From Anaerolineae bacterium (lineage in GTDB: Bacteria > Chloroflexota > Anaerolineae > UBA1429), in the NCBI GenBank assembly GCA_007132185.1, contig SLPC01000048.1, positions 1-60,447 on the forward strand: DNA of 60,447 bases, read 5' to 3'. Below the pieces are notes generated by a model, which saw only the letters and a list, made by a program, of their open reading frames with translations, made no database searches and was not told the DNA's origin. The translations under genes and the position numbers were made by a program. Below are positions 45,163-60,317 of the stretch, in pieces (position 1 is the first letter of the stretch; every line of letters begins with the position of its first letter).

Positions 45163-47007
45163 CTAGAGGTAGTTTGCCACAGCCTCGGCGGTCGCGCGGT
45201 TCATGCTCGGCACGGAGGCCAACTCCTCGACGCTGGCCTTGCGGATGGCATCCACCGAGCCAAATTGCCGCAACAGCGCCTGGCGACGCTTGGGCCCGAC
45301 GCCGGGGATTTCGTCCAGGACGGAACGGGTGCCCTCTTTGGCGCGCAGCTTGCGGTGGTAGGTAACGGCAAAGCGATGGGCCTCATCGCGGATACGCTGC
45401 ACGAGATAGAGCGCCTGCGAGCCCCGCGGGAGCTGCACTGGCGTAGGCCGCCCCGGCACGAATAGCTCTTCCTCCTGCTTGGCCAGCGCCGCGGTGGTGA
45501 TGTGCCCCATGCCCATGGATTCCAGCACCTCGCGCGCGACGCCGAGCTGCCCCTTGCCACCATCCAGGATCACCAGATCGGGCAGGATGGCCCAGCGGTT
45601 CGTCTGGCCATCCACCGAGCGCTTGGCCTGCGCCTCCTGGGCGCGGTGAAACCGCCGCGTGAGCACCTCACGCATGGAGGCATAGTCATCGGCGCCCTGC
45701 ACCGTCCGAACCCGGAAATGGCGATAATCGCGCTTGCTCGGCGTCCCCCGGTCAAAGACCACCATGCTGCCGGTGATGTGGGTGCCCTGAATGGCCGAGA
45801 TGTCATAGCACTCGATGCGCGTCGGCGGATGCGGCATCTCTAGCGCCGCCTGCAGATCGGTGAGGGCCTCTGTCTGGCGGTTGGTGTCCACTTCCCACTC
45901 CATGCGCAGCCGCTCCAGGGTCTCGATGGCATTCTCGTGGGCCATTCTGACGATGGCCCTCTTGTCGCCCCGCTTGGGGACCTTGATGGTCACTTTGCGG
46001 CCCCGCTGGCTGGCGAGCCAGGAGGTGATGACGGCAAACTCGTCCAGGTCGTGCTGCAAGAGAATCTCGGGTGGGATCTGGGTGGCCTCACTGTAGAACT
46101 GCTTGATGAACGAGCCCATCACCTCGGCATCGGCCTCGTCACTGGCGCCCGTAAGCACAAAATACTCGCGGCCGATCAGCTTGCCTTCACGCACAAAAAA
46201 GACCTGTACACAGGCCTGACCATCGTCCCGGGCCATGGCAATGATGTCGTGATCGCGCAGGTGCTCGGAGACGATGCGCTGCCGCTCAATGATCTGGTTG
46301 ATGGCGTCCACCTGGTCACGCAGCGTGGCAGCCTTCTCAAAGTCCAGGGCCTCGGCGGCCTCGTTCATCTCGCGCGCCAGATCCTTGACGATCTGCTCCG
46401 AGCGGCCCTCGAGGAACAGGCAGGCCTGCTGGATGATATTGCGGTACCCGGCCTGATCGATGGCACCAATACAGGGGCCGGTGCAGCGCTTGATATGATA
46501 GTAGAGGCAAGGGCGCGGGTCCTTGCCCGTGATCTCTCGGTTACAGGTGCGGTAAGGAAAGAGCCGGCGCAGCACCTCCAGCGTCTGGCGGACGGCCTGC
46601 GACGAAGTAAAGGGTCCAAAATAGCGCGCCCCATCACGTCGCGCCTGACGCACGATGCGAATGCGCGGAAAGGGCTCCTGCAGGGAAACCTGGATATAGG
46701 GGTAACGCTTGTCATCCTTGAGGCGTACGTTAAAGCGCGGGCGATGCTGCTTGATCAGCTCGCTCTCGAGGATCAGCGCCTCGAGCTCGGACTCGGTAAC
46801 GATCCACTCGATGTCGGCAATATCGTTGACGAGCCGCGCCGTCTTGGTCGAGTGGGTTGCCGAGGCATGAAAATAAGATCGTACCCGATTTCGCAGCACG
46901 ACAGCTTTGCCCACATATATGACGCGATCGTCCGCGTCCTTCATCAAATAGACGCCCGGCCTGTCCGGCAAGCCAGCCAGGCGCGTGGCGATCTGTTCCT
47001 CTACCAT
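45163..47007 (-). CDS. uvrC: Excinuclease ABC subunit C
   Basis: GIY-YIG (GVYLMKD...VIYVGKA...RV.SY), a central endonuclease region, and a C-terminal (HhH)2 (IPGVGPKRRQALL...ASVEELA). Confidence 0.92.
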   Translation of the reverse strand: MVEEQIATRLAGLPDRPGVYLMKDADDRVIYVGKAVVLRNRVRSYFHASATHSTKTARLVNDIADIEWIVTESELEALILESELIKQHRPRFNVRLKDDKRYPYIQVSLQEPFPRIRIVRQARRDGARYFGPFTSSQAVRQTLEVLRRLFPYRTCNREITGKDPRPCLYYHIKRCTGPCIGAIDQAGYRNIIQQACLFLEGRSEQIVKDLAREMNEAAEALDFEKAATLRDQVDAINQIIERQRIVSEHLRDHDIIAMARDDGQACVQVFFVREGKLIGREYFVLTGASDEADAEVMGSFIKQFYSEATQIPPEILLQHDLDEFAVITSWLASQRGRKVTIKVPKRGDKRAIVRMAHENAIETLERLRMEWEVDTNRQTEALTDLQAALEMPHPPTRIECYDISAIQGTHITGSMVVFDRGTPSKRDYRHFRVRTVQGADDYASMREVLTRRFHRAQEAQAKRSVDGQTNRWAILPDLVILDGGKGQLGVAREVLESMGMGHITTAALAKQEEELFVPGRPTPVQLPRGSQALYLVQRIRDEAHRFAVTYHRKLRAKEGTRSVLDEIPGVGPKRRQALLRQFGSVDAIRKASVEELASVPSMNRATAEAVANYL

Positions 47008-47141
47008 ATGTTCGCCACATCTCCTACGAGTTTCCCAATGCGTGCTAGACCGATTATACTAGCGCTCTTCCCTATGAGCAACCCGAGAGGCTGATGCAAG
47101 GCACGATAGGGGATCCATCTGCACCGATTCTAACATCTGCC

Positions 47142-47170
47142 TTGACAGCCGTTACTTTCTCATACATAAT
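47142..47170 (+). promoter_or_regulatory. Strong sigma-70-type promoter with no gene behind it
   Basis: TTGACA (47142-47147), 17-nt spacer, CATAAT (47165-47170). Confidence 0.55.
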
Positions 47171-47176
47171 GGGGAC

Positions 47177-47591
47177 ACACTGCCCATAGGGTGGTAGGGT
47201 TACAAGGGCGTATCGATCTTTTTCACAATTGCATCCAGGTTACGCTATTTTCGCTTCCGGCTCGCCTTATCGAGATTCAACGGGGTTATCATCGTCAAGG
47301 TGCGAGTTCCTGGTTACACGGCAAAGAGGCCACACCATCGGACGGAAAAGCAATGCGACCACACTCTGTGTCGAGTGCCTATCGGCTACCGGAATACGGT
47401 AGGGGGCTAGCCCTCCCACCGAATGTGCATGCACAGACTCCCGGTAGACGTAGCTATCCGTGTCCCAGCCGGGCACTGGCCAATCCACCTTGGCGCAGAC
47501 CCTGGTTTGCTCTGGAGCATGCGCGGGCCCGGTTTGTCACGCTTCGCCTCTTCTCTTTTGCGGCTGCCGTTATTACGGCGCCGCTTTTTTT
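47177..47591 (+). ncRNA. Candidate noncoding RNA or long cis-regulatory leader of about 415 nt (class unknown)
   Basis: It is bounded by the promoter above and an intrinsic terminator. It has lower GC than its flanks. The only ORFs have non-protein-like composition. Several local hairpins are present, e.g. CTACCG-GAATA-CGGTAG at 47386-47402. Confidence 0.4.
47560..47591 (+). terminator. Intrinsic terminator
   Basis: GCGGC(T)GCCG-TTATTA-CGGCGCCGC followed by T7 (47585-47591). Confidence 0.65.
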
Positions 47592-47813
47592 GTTCCCCAA
47601 CCTCTTGTCACTTGCGCGACTATATGCGGCGCGCCGATCAGCGCGTCCACTATAGGGGCGTTGCCGGTTGCTTCGCGCAACTAGCAGCGCAACAGACAGG
47701 CCCGTTTTGCCGCACACAACAAGCACAAAGGAGGAGCTTACCGCAGACCTAGCCAACGGAGCCGCAGTCTAAAAGAGTATCGGAAATCGCACTGTAAGCA
47801 ACGGGAGGAAGAC

Positions 47814-49322
47814 ATGTTTGAGAAGAAGCTGCTCACGCGCCGCACCTTGATCAAGGGAGCCGCCGGAAGCATGGTGCTTTTGGCCGCGGCGTGCCAGCCT
47901 CAAGTCGTCGAGGTCGAGCGAATCATCGAGCGAGAGGTGCCTGTAGAAAAAGTTGTCGAGAAAGAGGTCATCGTCGAAAAAGAGGTCGAGGTCGAGGTCG
48001 AGCGCGTCGTCGAGGTCGAAAAGATCGTCGAAGTCGAGCGAGCGGCCGAAGTCCGCGGCACCTTCTGGGTGCTTCAGAAGCAGGACTTTTTTCCCGCCTT
48101 TAACGATTGGTTCCGCGCCGAGACACGCACCTATGCCAGAGAGCGTGGCTGGCCCCTGGATATCTCGTACATCGCTGGATACACCGGCGGTACCCCCGAG
48201 ATCGAAAAGCTGATCGCCTCTGTCGCAGCCGGCACGCCGGTGGACCTTCTGATGCACAGCCTGGGCATCGTTCAGCTCCGCCAGGCCTATGCCCTGGAAG
48301 CTGTGACTGATGTAGTCGAGACCGTCGAGGCCGGGTGGGGCTCCACTTCTGCCCGCCAGCAGAACGACTATGTCGATGATGGTGAGTGGTGGGCGGCCCC
48401 CTACTTTCAGCGGTCTGACGGCGGATGGTACCTGCGCTCCGAAGAGGAAAGATATGGCGTAGACATCCAGTCGATCCGCCAGTTCGAGGAGCTCTGGGAG
48501 ACACTGCTCCCGATGAGCCGCCCCGAGGATGAGATGTACGGCTGGGGCGTCACCATCAACCGTTGCGGCGATGGGGACTGGTTCCGCCGCCGCGTCATGC
48601 ACGGCTGGGGCGCCTATCGCCAGGATGAGACGGGCCAGTTCGTGACGTTTGACTCGCCCGAGATGGTCGAGGCCATGACGGTCATGACCCAACTCTACAT
48701 CGACCCCAAGTGGGAGCGGATGCTGCCGCCGGGCGTCCTGGCCTGGACGGACCCCACCAACAACGAGGTCTGGCTGGCTGGCAAGCTGACCTACAGCTTT
48801 AATGGTGGTACGATGTATGCCAAGTCCATCCTGGACAACAACCCCGTTGCAGAAGATACCCGCTTCCATCCGCCTCCAGGTGGCCCTGTGAACGAAGAGT
48901 TCAATAGCTTTAGCGCCAACAACTTTATGATCTTGCGCGGCGCCCGCAATGTCGAGGCCGCCAAAGAGACCATCCTGCATTTCTTGTTGCCGCTGGAGAA
49001 TCAGGACTCGATGCTGGAGAACTCGCCCGGCTTCAGCATGCCCGCCTACGAGGACCTGTGGGACGCCTCCAAATACCTGCCGACCCATCCGACGGTACAG
49101 GAAATGGAGCCCGTGGCCACGGACAAGAGCGGCGTGATCCCCGGCCAGTATCCTGGCCCGCCCCTGAACCCCGCCATCGCTGCGGCCGACGCGGCCGGTC
49201 TCGAGAACGACATGGTCGCCGACATCCTCCGCGGGACGCCGGTGGCTGAGGCCGTCAAGACTTGCCACGATCGCTATGTGGCCATCTTCAAGGAGTTTGG
49301 CCGCCCAGGCGAGAGGGAATAG
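47814..49322 (+). CDS. ABC transporter substrate-binding lipoprotein (family 1 / CUT1-type, sugar), Tat-type signal
   Basis: Signal RRTLIKGAAGSMVLLAAA|C, then a V/E-rich tether, then an extracellular solute-binding fold. It lies upstream of MalFG-type permeases. Confidence 0.8.
   Translation: MFEKKLLTRRTLIKGAAGSMVLLAAACQPQVVEVERIIEREVPVEKVVEKEVIVEKEVEVEVERVVEVEKIVEVERAAEVRGTFWVLQKQDFFPAFNDWFRAETRTYARERGWPLDISYIAGYTGGTPEIEKLIASVAAGTPVDLLMHSLGIVQLRQAYALEAVTDVVETVEAGWGSTSARQQNDYVDDGEWWAAPYFQRSDGGWYLRSEEERYGVDIQSIRQFEELWETLLPMSRPEDEMYGWGVTINRCGDGDWFRRRVMHGWGAYRQDETGQFVTFDSPEMVEAMTVMTQLYIDPKWERMLPPGVLAWTDPTNNEVWLAGKLTYSFNGGTMYAKSILDNNPVAEDTRFHPPPGGPVNEEFNSFSANNFMILRGARNVEAAKETILHFLLPLENQDSMLENSPGFSMPAYEDLWDASKYLPTHPTVQEMEPVATDKSGVIPGQYPGPPLNPAIAAADAAGLENDMVADILRGTPVAEAVKTCHDRYVAIFKEFGRPGERE
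47904..48053 (+). repeat. Imperfect GTCGAG-type short tandem repeats encoding a 50-aa V/E-alternating tether
   Basis: The DNA reads ...gtcgaggtcgaggtcgagcgcgtcgtcgaggtcgaaaagatcgtcgaagtcgag... and encodes VVEVERIIEREVPVEKVVEKEVIVEKEVEVEVERVVEVEKIVEVERAAEV. Confidence 0.85.
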
Positions 49323-49336
49323 GCTTGTTTGTGCAA

Positions 49337-49375
49337 GCGATATGTGGGGCGGCGCATTACCGCCCCACATATCGC
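49337..49375 (+). promoter_or_regulatory. Perfect 16-bp intra-operon hairpin after the binding-protein gene
   Basis: GCGATATGTGGGGCGG-7 nt-CCGCCCCACATATCGC, with no U-tract. Confidence 0.6.
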
Positions 49376-49523
49376 TCTAGAGCTCGATGCGCAGGCGCAT
49401 GCCCCCGGTCGATATACCCATCTCTTGCTGGGCACATCGACGGCATGTGCTTGCGCGCCGAGACTTGGCCCGTAGGCCAAGCACCTTATCTACTAATCCA
49501 AGCAGTGCGAGGAGACAAGCTTC

Positions 49524-51521
49524 ATGTCGGAAGCAGCAAAACTAGACAGAGTTTCCACTGTGGCCGTCACGCAGCCGCTCACCAGGAAAAAGAGACTAGA
49601 GAACATACTAGGGCGTGACTGGCGCGAGGCCTGGATCTTTATCGCTCCTACCATCATCTTGATGGGCGGGCTAATCGCCTATCCGTTTGGTCGAGCCCTG
49701 TACATCAGCTTTACCAACACCATCAGCACCACGATTGGCCCCTGGGTCGGCCTGACGAACTATATCAATCTGTGGAACGATATCTTCTTCCGGCGTTCGG
49801 TCATGGTCACGGCCCAGTACACCGTGTCTGCCGTGTTTCTCAAGTTGGTGGCGGGTGTCTTGGCCGCCATCTTGCTGAATCGCTTGTCGGGCAAGTGGGC
49901 GCTGCTCACCGGCTTGGTGTTGCTACCCTGGATCATGCCCGAGATCGTCCGGGCCATCACATGGCGTGGCCTGCTGGACCCCCTCTATGGCGGGCTCAAT
50001 CGAGGGTTGGTGAACCTTGGCCTCGTGAGTCGCCCGCTGCCGTTCCTCACAGGGGTCAATACGGCTCTGCCTACCATAATCATGATCAACTTGTGGCAAG
50101 GCATACCCTTCTTTACTGTGAATCTGCTGGCAGGACTCAAGGCCATTGACCAGGAACTCTATGAGGCAGCGTCCATCGACGGGGCCACCAAGTGGCGCCA
50201 GTTCCTGCACATCACACTGCCGGGCCTGCGTTATGTCATTGTCGTTGTTACCCTGCTCTCGACCATCTGGACGTTCAATGGCTTTACGCTGATCTTTTTG
50301 CTCACCGGCGGTGGCCCCATGGATGCTACCAAGGTGTACTCGATCCTGGCCTACCAGATCGCCATCACCGGCATGCGCTATGGCGTGGGTATCGCGGTGG
50401 CCATGACCATGGCCCCAGTGCTGGGGATCTTTATCGTCGTACTGGGACGCTACATGATGGGCGGCTCACAGGCACAGGAGGAGAGCGTGCCCCGAGAGCC
50501 AGGACCTCTGGCCATCGTAGGCAAAGTCATTGTGTTTCCAGCCCTCATGCTGCTCAAGGCCATCATGGCCCTCTTCTGGCTGGTCAACAACTCAATTGAG
50601 CTGCTCTTTGAGGCCATTGGGCGGGGTATCAAGCGATTGATTCCCCAGCGGCCAACCATGCGCGGCGGCAAGATCCGTGTTCAGCGCTATCGCTGGCTGG
50701 CATCCGTCCTGCCGGTCTCTGCGTTTATCCTGCTCATCCTATTCGAGCTGCTGCCCTTTTACTGGGTCATCGTGACGGCGTTCAAGACCGAGCTGCAAAT
50801 CACGCGTTTTGAGAACGTCCTTTGGCCACAACCGTGGACCTTGGCCCAGTTTGAGCGTCTGTTCGGCCCGGCGCGCAACTTTGTCGTCTGGCTGCGCAAC
50901 ACAGTCACCATCTCGGTAATCACGCCGACCATCTCGACTCTGGTGGCTTCGCTGGGGGCCTATGCGCTGACCCGCTTGCGGTGGCGCGGGGCCAGCGCCG
51001 TCTCGCGTAGCGTGCTAGTAGCCTACCTGATGCCCGGCATCATGATGCTGGTGCCCATCTACCAGTTGTTCGCCCGTCTAAGGCTGACCAACACTCTATA
51101 TGCTCTCATCATCAGCTATCCAACCTTTGGATTGCCCTTTGCTCTCTGGCTGATGATGGGCTACTACTCTTCCATCCCCGAAGAGCTCGAAGCGGCTGCA
51201 CTGATCGATGGCTGCAACCGATTCCAGACCTTTTTCAAGGTCGTGCTCCCATTGACCAAGCCTGCGCTCATGGCTGTGGCGCTGTTCGGCGTCACCCAGG
51301 CCTGGAGCGAGTTCCTGTTCGCCTATGTCATGATCCACAGCGAAAGCAGGATGACCATCCCGGTAGGCCTGGCCCAGATGATCATCGGCGACGTGCTCCC
51401 CTGGGGTGAGTTGACTGCCGCAGCGCTGATCATGGCGGTGCCGGTGCTTATCATCTATTCGGTGGGGCAACGTTTCATGGTAGCGGGATTGACGGCCGGC
51501 GCCATCAAAGGTGGCGGCTAA
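49524..51521 (+). CDS. Fused ABC transporter permease (MalF/LacF-type half + MalG/LacG-type half), copy 1
   Basis: 665 aa with two EAA loops: ELYEAASIDGATKWRQFLHITLPGLR and ELEAAALIDGCNRFQTFFKVVLPLTKPAL. Each half has the typical N-terminal signature (WIFIAPTIILMGG...; LPFYWVIVTAFK...). Confidence 0.85.
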   Translation: MSEAAKLDRVSTVAVTQPLTRKKRLENILGRDWREAWIFIAPTIILMGGLIAYPFGRALYISFTNTISTTIGPWVGLTNYINLWNDIFFRRSVMVTAQYTVSAVFLKLVAGVLAAILLNRLSGKWALLTGLVLLPWIMPEIVRAITWRGLLDPLYGGLNRGLVNLGLVSRPLPFLTGVNTALPTIIMINLWQGIPFFTVNLLAGLKAIDQELYEAASIDGATKWRQFLHITLPGLRYVIVVVTLLSTIWTFNGFTLIFLLTGGGPMDATKVYSILAYQIAITGMRYGVGIAVAMTMAPVLGIFIVVLGRYMMGGSQAQEESVPREPGPLAIVGKVIVFPALMLLKAIMALFWLVNNSIELLFEAIGRGIKRLIPQRPTMRGGKIRVQRYRWLASVLPVSAFILLILFELLPFYWVIVTAFKTELQITRFENVLWPQPWTLAQFERLFGPARNFVVWLRNTVTISVITPTISTLVASLGAYALTRLRWRGASAVSRSVLVAYLMPGIMMLVPIYQLFARLRLTNTLYALIISYPTFGLPFALWLMMGYYSSIPEELEAAALIDGCNRFQTFFKVVLPLTKPALMAVALFGVTQAWSEFLFAYVMIHSESRMTIPVGLAQMIIGDVLPWGELTAAALIMAVPVLIIYSVGQRFMVAGLTAGAIKGGG

Positions 51522-51711
51522 CGCATCACGTCGACCTGGCAGATCAACGGGACCTGGGAGTTGCTTGCTTCCAGGTCCTGGCTTGGCCTCTGGTGTCCAG
51601 GCATCCGCCTCTATCCCATGGGAGTGAAACGTCATCGCCCTACGTGACAAGTTTGGAACAACCCCTACCCAGGAGAGCATCCGTCCGTCCGAGCCGCTAC
51701 CCTCGGCGGGC

Positions 51712-53619
51712 TTGTCGCGCCAGTTGGACCGCTGGCTGGGCCGCGACTGGAGCACGGCGGCTCTCTTTATGGCGCCTGCAGCGATACTGCTGCTGGGCCT
51801 GATCGCCTATCCCTTTGGGAGGGCGTTCTACCTCTCGTTCACCCGCACCCACAGCGCCCAGGTGGGTCCCTTTGTCGGGCTGGACAACTATATCAGCCTG
51901 TGGGGCGACCGGTTCTTTCGCCAGTCGGTGGGCGTCACAATACGCTTTACCTTCTGGTCGCTGGTATTCAAGCTGTTGGTGGCGACGCTGGGTGCGGTGC
52001 TCTTGCACCGGCTGGGCATGAGCGAGGGCCTGCTGGCAGGCCTGATCCTGCTACCCTGGATGATGCCCCAGGTGGTGCGGGCCATTACCTGGCGCGGCAT
52101 CCTGGACCCCCTCCTCGGCTCGGTCAACCGGATTCTGCTCACCACGGGCCTGCTCTCGCGGCCTTATCCCTTTTTCGGCGATATGCGTACGGCGCTGGCC
52201 AGCGTGATCCTGGTCGAGGTGTGGCAGGGCGTGCCGTTTATTCTCATCAACGTCCTTGCCGCCCTCAAGGGAATCGACCGGGAGCTGTACGAGGCCTCCG
52301 CGATCGACGGCGCGGGCCCAGTGCGCCAGTTCCTGCACATCACCCTGCCCGGGCTGCGCTATGTAATCGCCGTCGTACTGCTCCTGGATCTGCTTTGGAC
52401 GTTCAATAGCTTTGAGCTGATCTTTTTGCTCACGGGCGGAGGACCGGCCAACGTCACCAAGGTCTACTCGGTGCTGGCCTATGAGATGGCGGTGCGCGGA
52501 AGATGGTACAGCCGCGCTTCGGCGGCGGCCCTGGCCATGTTTCCCGCGTTCCTGCTGGTGATCGCGGCATTGGGACGCTATGTGATGGGCGGGCACCGGG
52601 TGGCCGAGTCCAGCCGGCTGCTCTCACGGCTCGGCTGGTCATTCCAGGGCAACGGGGCTGAGAGCCTTTTGCGGCTGCCCACCCGCAAGCTGGGTGATGC
52701 GGCCTGGTGGTTTGCCGATCGGCTGGAGCTACTCGTGGCGCCCTTGGCGCGGCTGTGGCCACGACGTGGGCCACGCGTGCGAGGCCAAGCGACAGGCCTT
52801 TTAGGGCGCTGGATGGCAGGGGCGGGGCTGGCTGCGTTATTGCTCTTTGAGCTGGGGCCCTTTTTCCTTCTGCTGATCACGGCGTTCAAGACCGAGATCC
52901 AGATCACCCGCTTCGAGTCGCTGCTCTGGCCGCAGCCCTGGTCGTTTGCCCAGTTCGAGCGCCTACTTGCACCCGGCAGCCGTTTCCTGATCTGGCTGCG
53001 CAACACGGCCTTTGTCTCGCTGGTGGCGCCCGTGCTGGCTACGCTGGTATCGGCGCTCTGCGCCTACGCGCTGACTCGGCTGCGATGGCGGGGGGCCCGT
53101 TTGGTGTCGAACCTGATTCTGATCGCCTACCTGCTGCCGCCGGTATTGCTGATCATCCCGATCCACCAGCTCTTTGTGCAGCTGGGGCTAAACAACTCGC
53201 TCTGGGGTCTGATCATTATCTATCCAGCGCTGATCCTGCCCTTTGCCGTGTGGCTGCTCATGGGCCACTATGCCGCCCTGCCCGACGAGCTGGAAGCCGC
53301 CGCACTGGTGGATGGTTGCAGTCGCTGGCAGGCCTTTATGCGCATCGTGCTGCCCCTGGCCAAGCCAGCCCTGGTGGCTGTCACCCTCTTTGGCGTGACG
53401 CGAGCCTGGAACGAGTTCCTGTTCGCCTATACCCTGCTGGCCACCGAGCAACGCTTTACGCTGCCGGTGGGCCTGGCCAGCATCGTCTTTGGCGATGTGC
53501 TGCCCTGGGGCCAGCTTTCGGCGGCGGCGCTGATCATGGCCGTACCGGTGCTGATATTGTACGTACTGGGGCAGCGCTTCCTGGTGGCAGGTCTGACCGC
53601 CGGCGCCCTCAAAGGATAG
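51712..53619 (+). CDS. Fused ABC transporter permease (MalF-type + MalG-type), copy 2
   Basis: 635 aa with the same architecture as copy 1 (ELYEASAIDGAGPVRQFLHITLPGLR; ELEAAALVDGCSRWQAFMRIVLPLAKPAL). TTG start with no nearby SD, so the start is uncertain. Confidence 0.8.
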   Translation: MSRQLDRWLGRDWSTAALFMAPAAILLLGLIAYPFGRAFYLSFTRTHSAQVGPFVGLDNYISLWGDRFFRQSVGVTIRFTFWSLVFKLLVATLGAVLLHRLGMSEGLLAGLILLPWMMPQVVRAITWRGILDPLLGSVNRILLTTGLLSRPYPFFGDMRTALASVILVEVWQGVPFILINVLAALKGIDRELYEASAIDGAGPVRQFLHITLPGLRYVIAVVLLLDLLWTFNSFELIFLLTGGGPANVTKVYSVLAYEMAVRGRWYSRASAAALAMFPAFLLVIAALGRYVMGGHRVAESSRLLSRLGWSFQGNGAESLLRLPTRKLGDAAWWFADRLELLVAPLARLWPRRGPRVRGQATGLLGRWMAGAGLAALLLFELGPFFLLLITAFKTEIQITRFESLLWPQPWSFAQFERLLAPGSRFLIWLRNTAFVSLVAPVLATLVSALCAYALTRLRWRGARLVSNLILIAYLLPPVLLIIPIHQLFVQLGLNNSLWGLIIIYPALILPFAVWLLMGHYAALPDELEAAALVDGCSRWQAFMRIVLPLAKPALVAVTLFGVTRAWNEFLFAYTLLATEQRFTLPVGLASIVFGDVLPWGQLSAAALIMAVPVLILYVLGQRFLVAGLTAGALKG

Positions 53620-55639: not shown

Positions 55640-57673
55640 CTAGGCCTCAAAGAACCACTGCTCCGGAAACTCGGGGAAGGACCAGAGGGTATCCCAGGTC
55701 CACAGACCACCATGTTCGCTGACATTCTTGAGGTTATTTCGAATGAACAGCGGGTGGGGCGCATTGCCGATGGCGCCAATGGTCCAGACATGCTCGGCCT
55801 GGCTCTCCAGAACCCTAGCGGCCGGCTCATTCTCATCGGTGAGGTTGTACTCATCCATCCAGTCGTATAGGTCTTTGATCACTTGCGGGGGCTCTTCGCC
55901 CATGTCGCCGCCGGTGTTGTACCAGCGACCCCACAACACGCCCCAGCAGCTCTCGTCACCGTCCAGCGGCGTAAAGAACTTGGGCCGGCGCAGGAACAGG
56001 GTATCAGCCGACTCGTCGCCGTGCCACAACGACATCGGCTCTTCGTTGGCGATGATCTTTTGCGTCAGAAGCGTGCGGGTGATCGACTGCCACCGGATCT
56101 CGATGCCGACAGCCTTCCAGTACTCTTCCACCAGCTCGGTGATGGGGCCCTTGGGCGTCTCGGTCTCGACCAGGTCCCAGCCGATGATGATCGGAGTCTT
56201 GCTTACAGGCCAGAGCCTGTGGGTGCCAGCGGCGTTCCACTCCAGGCCCATCTCGTCCAACAGCGCATTGGCCCGATCCCGATCGAACTCGGCATATGCC
56301 TGGGCGTACTCGGGCTTGTAGTGCCGCGAGGCCGGGATGACAGTCATCTGCGTCTCACTGGCGTTGCCAAAGTAGATGACGTCGTTGATGTCGCCCCGGT
56401 TGATGGCCAGCGACAGCGCCTGGCGGAAGCGGTCATCGGAGAACACCTCGCGCCACTCTTCTTCTTCCCAGTTCATATTGACGTTGTAGACCACTTCGCC
56501 GCCCTTGCCCGACTCCCACAGAATCATGCGCGCATCGGACTGGGCCGCGCCGTCTGCATACGTGGCATAGTACAGGATACGCAACTGGAATGCGGCGAAA
56601 TCATAGGTGCCGCCCACGACCTTGGCATCAAAGACCGACAGGTCCGCAGCGCGATCCATGTTGATCTGGTCGATGTAGGGAAGCTGATTCCCCTCGGGGT
56701 CCACTGCATGATAGTAAGGGTTCCGCTCGAGGAATACCATGGTCGGCGTGTCGCGAACAGGGACATAAGTCTCCAAGAAAGGCCGATCGATGTTCTGGCC
56801 GCGGTTGTTCTTCTGGCCATGATTCTGATACCAGAAATCAAAGCCATCTTCCTTCGCCAGATCTTCAGCCTTGTCATTGTACTTGATGTCAAACTGCTTC
56901 AGATAGTGGGCGGGGCAGAAGGTCTGGTTACCCCAAAAGCCGTACAAGTGAGCCATGTTGACCAGCACAAACGACGGATGCGGCTGGGCAAAGGTGAGCT
57001 TGAAGGTATAGTCATCGATGATGTCAAGCTCCATGATCTGGCCGCCGGGGCGGAACCACATGCCGGGCACCGGGGTGATCTCGGTGTCCAGAAGAATATC
57101 CTCAAACCAGTAGCGGATATCCTCGGTGGTCAGCGGCGCGCCATCGGACCATTTCATGCCCCTGCGCATGTAGCACGTGATCTCGGTAAAGTCATCGCTG
57201 ACTTCCCAGTCCTTCATGATATGCGGCACGGCGTGGGTCGCATCTTTCGAGATGCGCAACCAGTTGGGACGATCCATAGCCATATGGACATCGCCACCAG
57301 ACAGGTTCATGGTCAGGTCACCGACAGTCAGGGTGCCACCATAGTCGCCAATCCGCTCGTAGACTTCACAGACGCGGGGCTCCTCAGGCAGGCGCTCGTC
57401 CACAGGCGGGAGCTCGCCACGTGCAACGCGGGCAGCTAACATGGGGGACTCGCCGTACTTGTCGGGCGGAGGCGCGACCTCGACCTCTTTTTCGACGATG
57501 ACTTCCTTCTCGACGACTACTTCCTTTTCGACCTCTTTTTCGACGATAACCGTCTCTTGGACGATCTTTTCGACCACCTCAGGCTCACGAGCGCAGGCTG
57601 CTATGGCTACGCCAGCGGCTGTCAGGCTGGTCAGTCGAATAAAGTCGCGACGCGTGTGCTTCTTCAGATCCAT
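55640..57673 (-). CDS. ABC transporter substrate-binding lipoprotein, family 5 (oligopeptide/oligosaccharide type), Tat-type signal
   Basis: Signal RRDFIRLTSLTAAGVAIAA|C, then a V/E tether, then a large family-5-like body. RBS GGAGG lies 6 nt before the ATG. Confidence 0.8.
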   Translation of the reverse strand: MDLKKHTRRDFIRLTSLTAAGVAIAACAREPEVVEKIVQETVIVEKEVEKEVVVEKEVIVEKEVEVAPPPDKYGESPMLAARVARGELPPVDERLPEEPRVCEVYERIGDYGGTLTVGDLTMNLSGGDVHMAMDRPNWLRISKDATHAVPHIMKDWEVSDDFTEITCYMRRGMKWSDGAPLTTEDIRYWFEDILLDTEITPVPGMWFRPGGQIMELDIIDDYTFKLTFAQPHPSFVLVNMAHLYGFWGNQTFCPAHYLKQFDIKYNDKAEDLAKEDGFDFWYQNHGQKNNRGQNIDRPFLETYVPVRDTPTMVFLERNPYYHAVDPEGNQLPYIDQINMDRAADLSVFDAKVVGGTYDFAAFQLRILYYATYADGAAQSDARMILWESGKGGEVVYNVNMNWEEEEWREVFSDDRFRQALSLAINRGDINDVIYFGNASETQMTVIPASRHYKPEYAQAYAEFDRDRANALLDEMGLEWNAAGTHRLWPVSKTPIIIGWDLVETETPKGPITELVEEYWKAVGIEIRWQSITRTLLTQKIIANEEPMSLWHGDESADTLFLRRPKFFTPLDGDESCWGVLWGRWYNTGGDMGEEPPQVIKDLYDWMDEYNLTDENEPAARVLESQAEHVWTIGAIGNAPHPLFIRNNLKNVSEHGGLWTWDTLWSFPEFPEQWFFEA
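57476..57583 (-). repeat. Short tandem GAG/GTC-type repeats encoding a V/E-alternating tether
   Basis: Encodes PEVVEKIVQETVIVEKEVEKEVVVEKEVIVEKEVEV directly after the lipobox. Confidence 0.8.
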
Positions 57674-58018
57674 TGTGTACCTCCATGTACAGACAAGACG
57701 CTACACTATGCAGCCAAGACATGACCAGACGGGGTTATAGGCTGCTACGCGCGGAAATAGGGTTGGCCAGTAGGCATCTCCTCCTTCTTCAAGAGGCGTA
57801 CCAGAGCTACAGGTATAAGCGTGGAGAGCGGTGATGCCGACTCTCACACGATGTATGAGCGACCTGTAGCAGAGACGCCTCATTTGGCTGGCATACGAAA
57901 AGAGCAATACGGCAGAGAGGTTGTGGAGCGACTGCTTTACTGTGATGTCAATTGCTACCGCTTGCCAACCAATTGAGCCAACAGTGGATCTGAGAGTAAA
58001 TCCCTCAGGCTCATCGTT

Positions 58019-58047
58019 ACTCTACGATAGCAAACGAATCTTGTCAA
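58019..58047 (-). promoter_or_regulatory. Candidate promoter giving a leader of about 340 nt for the family-5 binding-protein gene
   Basis: On the minus strand: TTGACA (58047-58042), 17-nt spacer, TAGAGT (58024-58019). Confidence 0.45.
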
Positions 58048-60288: not shown

Positions 60289-60317
60289 ATAATAGCATAC
60301 GTGAGCTGAATTGTCAA
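60289..60317 (-). promoter_or_regulatory. Near-consensus sigma-70-type promoter (closest to consensus in the window)
   Basis: On the minus strand: TTGACA (60317-60312), 17-nt spacer, TATTAT (60294-60289). Confidence 0.6.

Follow-up and report, generated by a model that had tools for sequence, protein, structure and literature searches.

The window, that is, the whole 60,447-nt stretch of DNA analyzed here, belongs to a metagenome-assembled genome (G000). Pfam confirmed UvrC at 45163-47007 on the minus strand and assigned the plus-strand gene at 47814-49322 to the SBP_bac_1 solute-binding proteins (family 1); two large BPD_transp_1 permeases are encoded after it. The intergenic region between uvrC and this sugar ABC operon carries, on the operon strand, a promoter-to-terminator unit first noticed in a first-pass annotation of the DNA (Table 1). 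The promoter was confirmed where that annotation had placed it, as an 11/12 match with its -35 element TTGACA at 47142-47147, a 17-nt spacer and its -10 element CATAAT at 47165-47170. Transcription is predicted to start near 47177, from which the unit extends over 415 nt to position 47591, in agreement with the earlier estimate of about 415 nt. The strong terminator described at 47560-47591 was likewise recovered, with a correction to its structure: the hairpin GCGGCUGCCGUUAUUACGGCGCCGC (47560-47584) does not hold a 9-bp GC stem but 10 pairs, arranged as 5+5 bp around one bulged U and closed by a 4-nt loop, and a T7 run occupies 47585-47591. The first real start codon beyond it, the ATG at 47814 with its SD sequence GGGAGGAAG, comes 223 nt after the end of the T-run, where about 220 nt had been reported.

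Table 1 Features between uvrC and the sugar ABC operon, in window coordinates.
Feature	Position	Strand	Remarks
Sigma-70-type promoter TTGACA-17-CATAAT	47142..47170	+	11/12 consensus match
Variable 5' leader part	47177..47311	+	17-73% identity in 30-nt windows, mostly <50%; several indels
Mini-hairpin A, GGC-AAAGAG-GCC	47320..47331	+	stem kept in 5/6 sequences
Most conserved internal block, GCCACACC..CGGAA.AG.CAATGCG.CCACACTCT-N6-GAGTGC	47329..47378	+	77-90% identity
Hairpin B: CACUC, hexaloop, GAGUG	47362-47377	+	stem invariant; within conserved block
Hairpin D, CGGUAGGGGG..CCCUCCCACCG	47397..47421	+	87% paired across sequences
Variable spacer of fixed length	47440..47545	+	gapless alignment 39-51% identical
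Pyrimidine (CU-rich) tract GCCUCUUCUCUUUU, abutting the terminator on its 5' side	47546..47559	+	
Intrinsic terminator: 10-bp GC-rich hairpin + U7	47560..47591	+	-17.7 kcal/mol; 4/5 lineages
Distal-leader hairpin CUAUAU-GCGGCGCGCCGAUCAGCGCGUCC-ACUAUAG	47620..47655	+	near-invariant in five lineages
Orphan SD-like element AAAGGAGGAG	47727..47736	+	79 nt before ATG; kept in all lineages and distant orthologues
True SD (GGGAGGAAG) and ATG of the SBP_bac_1 gene, first of the ABC operon (47814-53619)	47803..47816	+	

Promoter sites of the 11/12 grade occur three times on the two strands of the 60,447-nt window as opposed to 0.03 expected from shuffled sequences, which makes near-perfect matches a real signal in this genome. 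One of the other two sites in the whole-window scan precedes mutS2 (42642, +); the other lies at 60317 (-). Between the terminator and the ATG of the binding-protein gene, no sigma-70 consensus promoter was found in any of the five lineages compared below, at a cut-off of at least 9/12 in the window and in the L037 contig and of at least 10/12 in the other sequences. TTGTCA at 47605-47610 was considered as part of a second promoter past the terminator and rejected, being spaced only 10 nt from TATATG, and there was no further candidate; a post-terminator promoter unlike the sigma-70 consensus could exist. On the uvrC side of the region, the sequence GCTAGACCGATTATAC (47043-47058), immediately ahead of uvrC, is shared by every g1-type copy and, with one change, by the same-genus genome G002, which is devoid of the promoter-terminator unit; its minus strand contains TATAAT, and it is thus probably the -10 region of uvrC.

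The comparison rests on five lineages, all of them metagenome-derived. A BLAST search of 60 relatives yielded one match, in the same-genus genome G001, with an identical uvrC / binding-protein arrangement, and four further contigs (L037, L040, L041 and L042) were reached through the 90% cluster of the binding protein and its nearest homologues. The resulting six sequences represent the lineages G000 (the window), G001 together with L041, L042, L040, and L037, with binding proteins that are 86-91% identical and four-fold sites that are 63-74% identical. All five copies outside the window (G001, L037, L040, L041 and L042) lie directly upstream of the orthologous binding-protein gene. The alignment of the uvrC / ABC-locus region, a comparison suggested by the first-pass annotation, found promoter, internal block and terminator conserved in relatives. 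The promoter, CTTGACA-17-CATAATGG, is invariant in 6/6 homologous sequences. The terminator has been lost from L037 only, and its innermost pair, U-A in the window and L040, is C-G in the G001 group, a compensatory change. The CU-rich character of the preceding tract is retained in all four terminator-bearing lineages. Pairing of this tract with the distal AAAGGAGGAG amounts to 11 bp in the window and was discarded as unsupported, the register not being kept in G001.

Inside the unit, the block at 47329-47378 stands out in the six-way alignment with 77-90% identity versus 17-50% for the adjacent segments; its 3' part can also be written CAATGCG.CCACACUCU-N6-GAGUGC. Hairpin A, missing in L037, displays the loops AAAGAG, AUUGAC, AUCGAG and AUAGGC in the other four lineages, so that A1 and G4 of the hexaloop are kept while positions 2, 3, 5 and 6 vary. 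The loop of hairpin B varies at positions 2, 3 and 5 only, U1, G4 and C6 being kept. Hairpin D contains one pair that differs on both sides (GC, AU, UA), besides two that differ on one side. From position 47353 in the conserved block to the terminator, the distance is exactly 207 nt in the window (47353-47560), the G001 group (1449-1656 in L002) and L040 (2201-2408), and the middle of the unit seems, as judged from the alignment, to be constrained in spacing rather than in sequence, about 180 nt of poorly conserved sequence separating block and terminator. Two side observations concern this part of the leader. Hairpin D of the G001 group (CGGUAGGGG-AUUGGCC-CCCCUGCCG) has CUUUUGUCUG behind it and scores as a second terminator-like site (1496-1530 in L002, identical in L042), and the U-run is missing at that position in the window. 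The leader of L042, identical to that of G001 from the block onward, is far less G001-like upstream of the block (291-460) and there partly resembles that of the window, a mosaic that speaks for recombination within the leader.

Hairpins A, B and D and the terminator are, taken together, 89.5% paired across the sequences, compared to 34-53% in slid controls. Two of the 27 pairs of the local hairpins change on both sides in the six-sequence alignment, and the RNAalifold covariation term of +2.45 indicates no net covariation. The minimum free energy of the 415-nt fold was no better than that of shuffled sequences (z = -0.45; opposite strand, z = -1.11). From the shuffle scores and the positive covariation term, an ornate structured RNA is therefore not supported. 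A convincing antiterminator was also looked for in the unit, without success: the helix that came closest, 47318-47323 with 47565-47570, is paired in four lineages and falls within the slid controls, which reach 67-75%.

The search for known RNA families that had been suggested for this unit was run with Rfam 15: nothing in the whole window reached the gathering score, and relaxing the threshold to E<=10 over 46950-47900 brought up only terminator-shaped noise. ARAGORN found nothing. RNase P RNA and tmRNA are encoded elsewhere in the genome, on contigs C68 and C242, respectively; a divergent copy of either in the unit was rejected for that reason, and the absence of these two RNAs from the unit, judged by eye in the first-pass annotation, is borne out. 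A covariance model of the block (R1) retrieved only the block itself from its own genome and, from 401 genomes of the class, GC-rich hairpins lacking the conserved sequence and nothing credible. A 19-mer from the block, searched against metagenome and genome collections, gave chance matches inside genes only. On the evidence of these searches, the block at 47329-47378 is not a widespread RNA class.

Beyond the terminator, a further set of elements is shared over a wider range of genomes. The hairpin at 47620-47655 is recognizable in the leaders of genus g21 and in L059 and, together with the orphan AAAGGAGG (47727-47734), is common to distant orthologues of the binding-protein gene. It contains G-U pairs, so that a role as RNA is likelier than one as a DNA operator. 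Past the terminator position, the window and genus g21 have in common this hairpin, AAAGGAGGAG and GUAUCGG; the g21 leaders harbor neither the block nor the terminator, so that transcription of the distal elements must come from the distant promoter. The 5' parts of the g1 and g21 leaders share short word matches only, which were judged to be due to chance, and homology between them was rejected. Copies of the distal hairpin occur in L010, L011, L012 and L059, in genera whose leaders are otherwise unalignable, and consist of a GC-rich inner stem within AU-rich arms, CUAUA/UAUAG or, in genus g21, CAUAUG/CAUAUG.

The SD-like element itself is followed by no ATG, GTG or TTG within 13 nt. AAGGAGG is found in three copies in the window, none of which is a working ribosome-binding site, and two of them are placed upstream of the two binding-protein genes of the window, at 79 and 106 nt, the latter within the orphan GAAGGAGGAG. 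The second of these genes, of family 5 (55640-57673, -), repeats the layout of the first, with a promoter TTGACA-17-TAGAGT (10/12) about 345 nt before its ATG and an intergenic leader of about 410 nt (57673-58047, -), and so adds to the case for the leader. Genome-wide, 24 copies of AAGGAGG precede a long ORF with an SD-bearing start by 30-160 nt; ABC binding proteins are encoded by at least six of these ORFs, and the others include a secreted subtilase and an aldehyde:ferredoxin oxidoreductase. The longer form (A/G)AAGGAGG(U/A)G was seen 78-157 nt before the real starts of ABC binding-protein genes and of the subtilase and oxidoreductase genes, which are likewise probably abundant in expression, at 47727-47736 and 57777-57789 (-) in the window and on contigs C39, C60, C121, C183, C143 and C12. 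Most such copies have no start codon behind them; those on C121 and C183 precede a short upstream ORF.

The first-pass annotation had read the unit either as a stand-alone sRNA or as an unusually long, terminator-controlled leader of the binding-protein/permease operon. In the former case, the unit would be the gene of a ~415-nt trans-acting sRNA whose CU-rich tract at 47546-47559 pairs with the SD sequences of its targets, and the operon would be transcribed from a promoter of its own downstream of 47591. Such a gene would account for the presence of a strong promoter and a strong terminator at the two ends of the unit, for the retention of terminator and CU-rich tract in four lineages, for the complementarity of that tract to GGAGG-type sequences and for the well-conserved block in the interior. 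Its tie to the operon speaks against it. The unit is always found beside the binding-protein gene, and G002 and G003, two genomes of the same genus in which uvrC is present and the operon absent, have no unit beside uvrC; the unit therefore travels with the operon. In L037, the single promoter 632 nt before the gene, the block and the distal leader have all outlasted the terminator, the loss of which would fuse the sRNA to the mRNA, and no visible promoter has been gained there. The lack of a consensus promoter past the terminator in any lineage is a further argument against an independent sRNA gene, as is the occurrence of the unit as one copy per genome with no relatives among 401 genomes of the class. 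Finally, the binding-protein orthologues of other genera (55-75% identity) rely on a single far-upstream promoter: each orthologue whose upstream DNA is long enough shows a single promoter of 10/12 or better, 245-653 nt from the gene and usually TTGAC(A/G/T)-17-CATAAT, with no such promoter closer to the start. The sole promoter, L037, the linkage to the operon and the distant orthologues all favor the leader, and a stand-alone sRNA gene is disfavored and, in our estimate, unlikely. The two readings are compatible in that a terminated leader fragment could also act in trans.

We thus give a probability of roughly 60% to the reading in which the sugar ABC operon has an untranslated leader of ~640 nt with an internal attenuator, and the unit makes up the 5' two-thirds of this leader. 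As in attenuation leaders generally, a promoter and an intrinsic terminator come ahead of the first gene, on its strand and without an intervening gene. Transcription would start near 47177 from the sole consensus promoter of the locus, and most RNA polymerases would halt at 47560-47591, releasing an RNA of about 415 nt. The terminator would end most transcripts before the operon, and it is therefore proposed to be an attenuator. Polymerases that read through would traverse the distal leader (hairpin at 47620-47655, AAAGGAGGAG at 47727-47736) before reaching the operon. Read-through would need help since the terminator is strong, and we infer that it occurs and is regulated; calling the leader terminator-controlled, as in the first-pass annotation, is likewise an inference. 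The block at 47329-47378, with hairpins A and B, would be the site of action of a factor, presumably a protein and less likely a small ligand, and the distal SD-like element would stabilize the read-through mRNA. Leader-internal termination may have been used repeatedly, or retained, in this group of operons, as suggested by the terminator-like hairpins within the leaders of three distant orthologues (G031a, L065 and L038). These hairpins are unrelated: in G031 (L024), a 10-bp GC stem sits 332 nt ahead of the ATG; L065 has a 12-bp stem; and in L038, a U7 run is found about 230 nt upstream of the ATG.

Control of this kind, by a leader that bears a terminator, is already familiar. In Bacillus subtilis, the sacB, sacPA, bglPH and licS leaders contain terminators that are under the control of the antiterminator proteins SacY, SacT and LicT. 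As in those leaders, a promoter, an untranslated leader and an intrinsic terminator precede carbohydrate-uptake genes here, and a short terminated transcript would be the default product. Unlike them, the present terminator lies some 385-415 nt from the start and is followed by another 223 nt of leader, no antiterminator-binding hairpin overlaps it, and the transporter is an ABC system rather than a PTS. A RAT-terminator layout of the BglG/LicT type was rejected, no protein with a CAT_RBD domain (PF03123; BglG/LicT-type) being matched in this 95% complete genome. Leaders recognized by ANTAR proteins (EutV, NasR and AmiR; PMC3369931) resemble the unit in having hexaloop mini-hairpins upstream of an intrinsic terminator, and hairpin A keeps the A1 and G4 of its loop in four lineages. 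The published ANTAR target comprises two hairpins with A1 and G4 in their hexaloops, joined by a linker of 5-12 nt, the second of which overlaps the 5' arm of the terminator (PMC3369931). Here, in contrast, hairpin B has U1 instead of A1 and the linker measures 30 nt. No hairpin overlaps the terminator, which begins 183 nt past hairpin B, and the canonical mutually exclusive ANTAR layout is therefore missing. An ANTAR target RNA was rejected on both counts, the two-hairpin A1/G4 rule and the linker/overlap rule. Mini-hairpins with A..G..-type loops are not enriched in these leaders (27 versus 23 +/- 4.5 in shuffles). The genome encodes one ANTAR-domain protein (G000:C204:2853-3011, 81 bits, in a 200-aa open frame). 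A specific form of the leader reading, in which the block is the docking site of an RNA-binding regulator, for example this single ANTAR protein, or a ligand sensor, and governs a terminator 207 nt away, strikes us as improbable. Points against the attenuator reading as a whole are that no convincing antiterminator turned up for so strong a terminator, that fold stability and covariation of the unit are unremarkable, that the lineages number only five, and that the present leader, where some 180 nt of weakly conserved DNA come between block and terminator, differs from compact attenuators.

The distal part of the leader invites comparison with another system, the cry3Aa (cryIIIA) gene of Bacillus thuringiensis (Agaisse and Lereclus 1994, 1996, in PMC12970973), whose transcription starts at -558 and whose processed mRNA is protected by a STAB-SD. 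The promoter of the present operon is similarly distant (-643), and in both leaders an orphan SD-like sequence, with no start codon behind it, is found some 80-130 nt ahead of the true start; by sequence, the element AAAGGAGGAG, a complement of the 16S rRNA 3' end located far upstream and followed by no start codon, has the makings of a STAB-SD. The description of cry3Aa mentions no internal terminator, and the present case differs further in concerning binding-protein genes, not a toxin, of a Chloroflexota bacterium, with the likeness read from sequence. The pattern of far-upstream SD-like elements in this genome, then, resembles STAB-SD, and the element at 47727-47736 might stabilize the read-through mRNA in the same manner.

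For the terminated product of the proposed leader, the greA leader of Escherichia coli offers a published precedent, by analogy. Two-thirds of its transcripts end within the leader to give the GraL RNAs (PMC2836576), and the analogy lies in short RNAs that come from the promoter of the gene itself because most transcripts from it terminate inside the leader, the remainder being the mRNA. GraL RNAs differ in measuring 40-60 nt and in arising from a termination that seems constitutive (PMC2836576), as opposed to the predicted product of about 415 nt with its conserved block. In another reading, the interior of the unit has no regulatory role: the operon would simply have a far-upstream promoter, a constitutively leaky or decaying terminator would do no more than lower its expression, and the block would act as a signal for processing or stability, or as a DNA site. 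Conservation is weak over much of the unit, L037 manages without the terminator, genus g21 manages without both block and terminator, and the efficiency of termination in the greA leader was reported to be unaffected by growth phase (PMC2836576), all of which fit this picture. It sits poorly with a terminator kept in four lineages with a compensatory change, with a block-to-terminator spacing fixed at 207 nt despite 39-51% identity and with a block held at 77-90% identity, and we rank it next after the stand-alone sRNA, as rather unlikely.

A coding function appears far less probable still. The candidate would be a small protein of ~100 aa running from ATG 47353 to TAG 47655, through the terminator hairpin, and in one variant termination might be controlled by translation through this hairpin, as happens in the pyrBI leader. 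Its ATG and stop are conserved with the frame open in 5/5 lineages, the distance from ATG to terminator is the constant 207 nt in three lineages, and synonymous differences number 11-13 in this frame as against 5-10 in the other two. On the other hand, another frame is open over a longer stretch (450-543 nt) in each sequence, substitutions show no codon periodicity (32/33/30, 35/32/35 and 30/31/43), non-synonymous differences outnumber synonymous ones by about 4:1 in every frame, and the middle of the products is unalignable. Nor is there a convincing SD, GGAAAAGCA being what precedes ATG 47353, and the stem-preserving changes of the terminator are non-synonymous when read in the frame (V/T to A/A). 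None of six ORFs of the unit matched Pfam or NCBIfam. The opinion of the first-pass annotation that the overlapping ORFs are arbitrary is upheld by the lack of codon periodicity and of family matches. A decayed gene was rejected (0/6 ORFs with a Pfam or NCBIfam match), as was a short leader peptide just before the terminator, because its ATG 47519 is absent in G001.

To our knowledge, almost no studies have dealt with gene regulation in Anaerolineae (Chloroflexota), a scarcity owed to the small number of cultured members. If the leader reading is right, a binding-protein operon of this class draws on a near-consensus promoter placed very far upstream and on a ~640-nt leader with a strong internal terminator. 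The distant promoter is kept by orthologues across the family, so that the layout would be design and not accident. Annotation pipelines and sRNA screens would miscall such units as orphan sRNA genes. Were the block indeed a docking or sensor site, it would represent a new long-range, sugar-responsive attenuation in Chloroflexota, and the terminated 415-nt product might additionally act in trans via its CU-rich, anti-SD-like tail. The best SD matches of this genome often stand some 80-130 nt before binding-protein genes, where they initiate nothing, which suggests, by analogy with cry3Aa, that STAB-SD-like stabilization of abundant mRNAs extends outside Bacillota. This side observation may prove more general than the leader itself.
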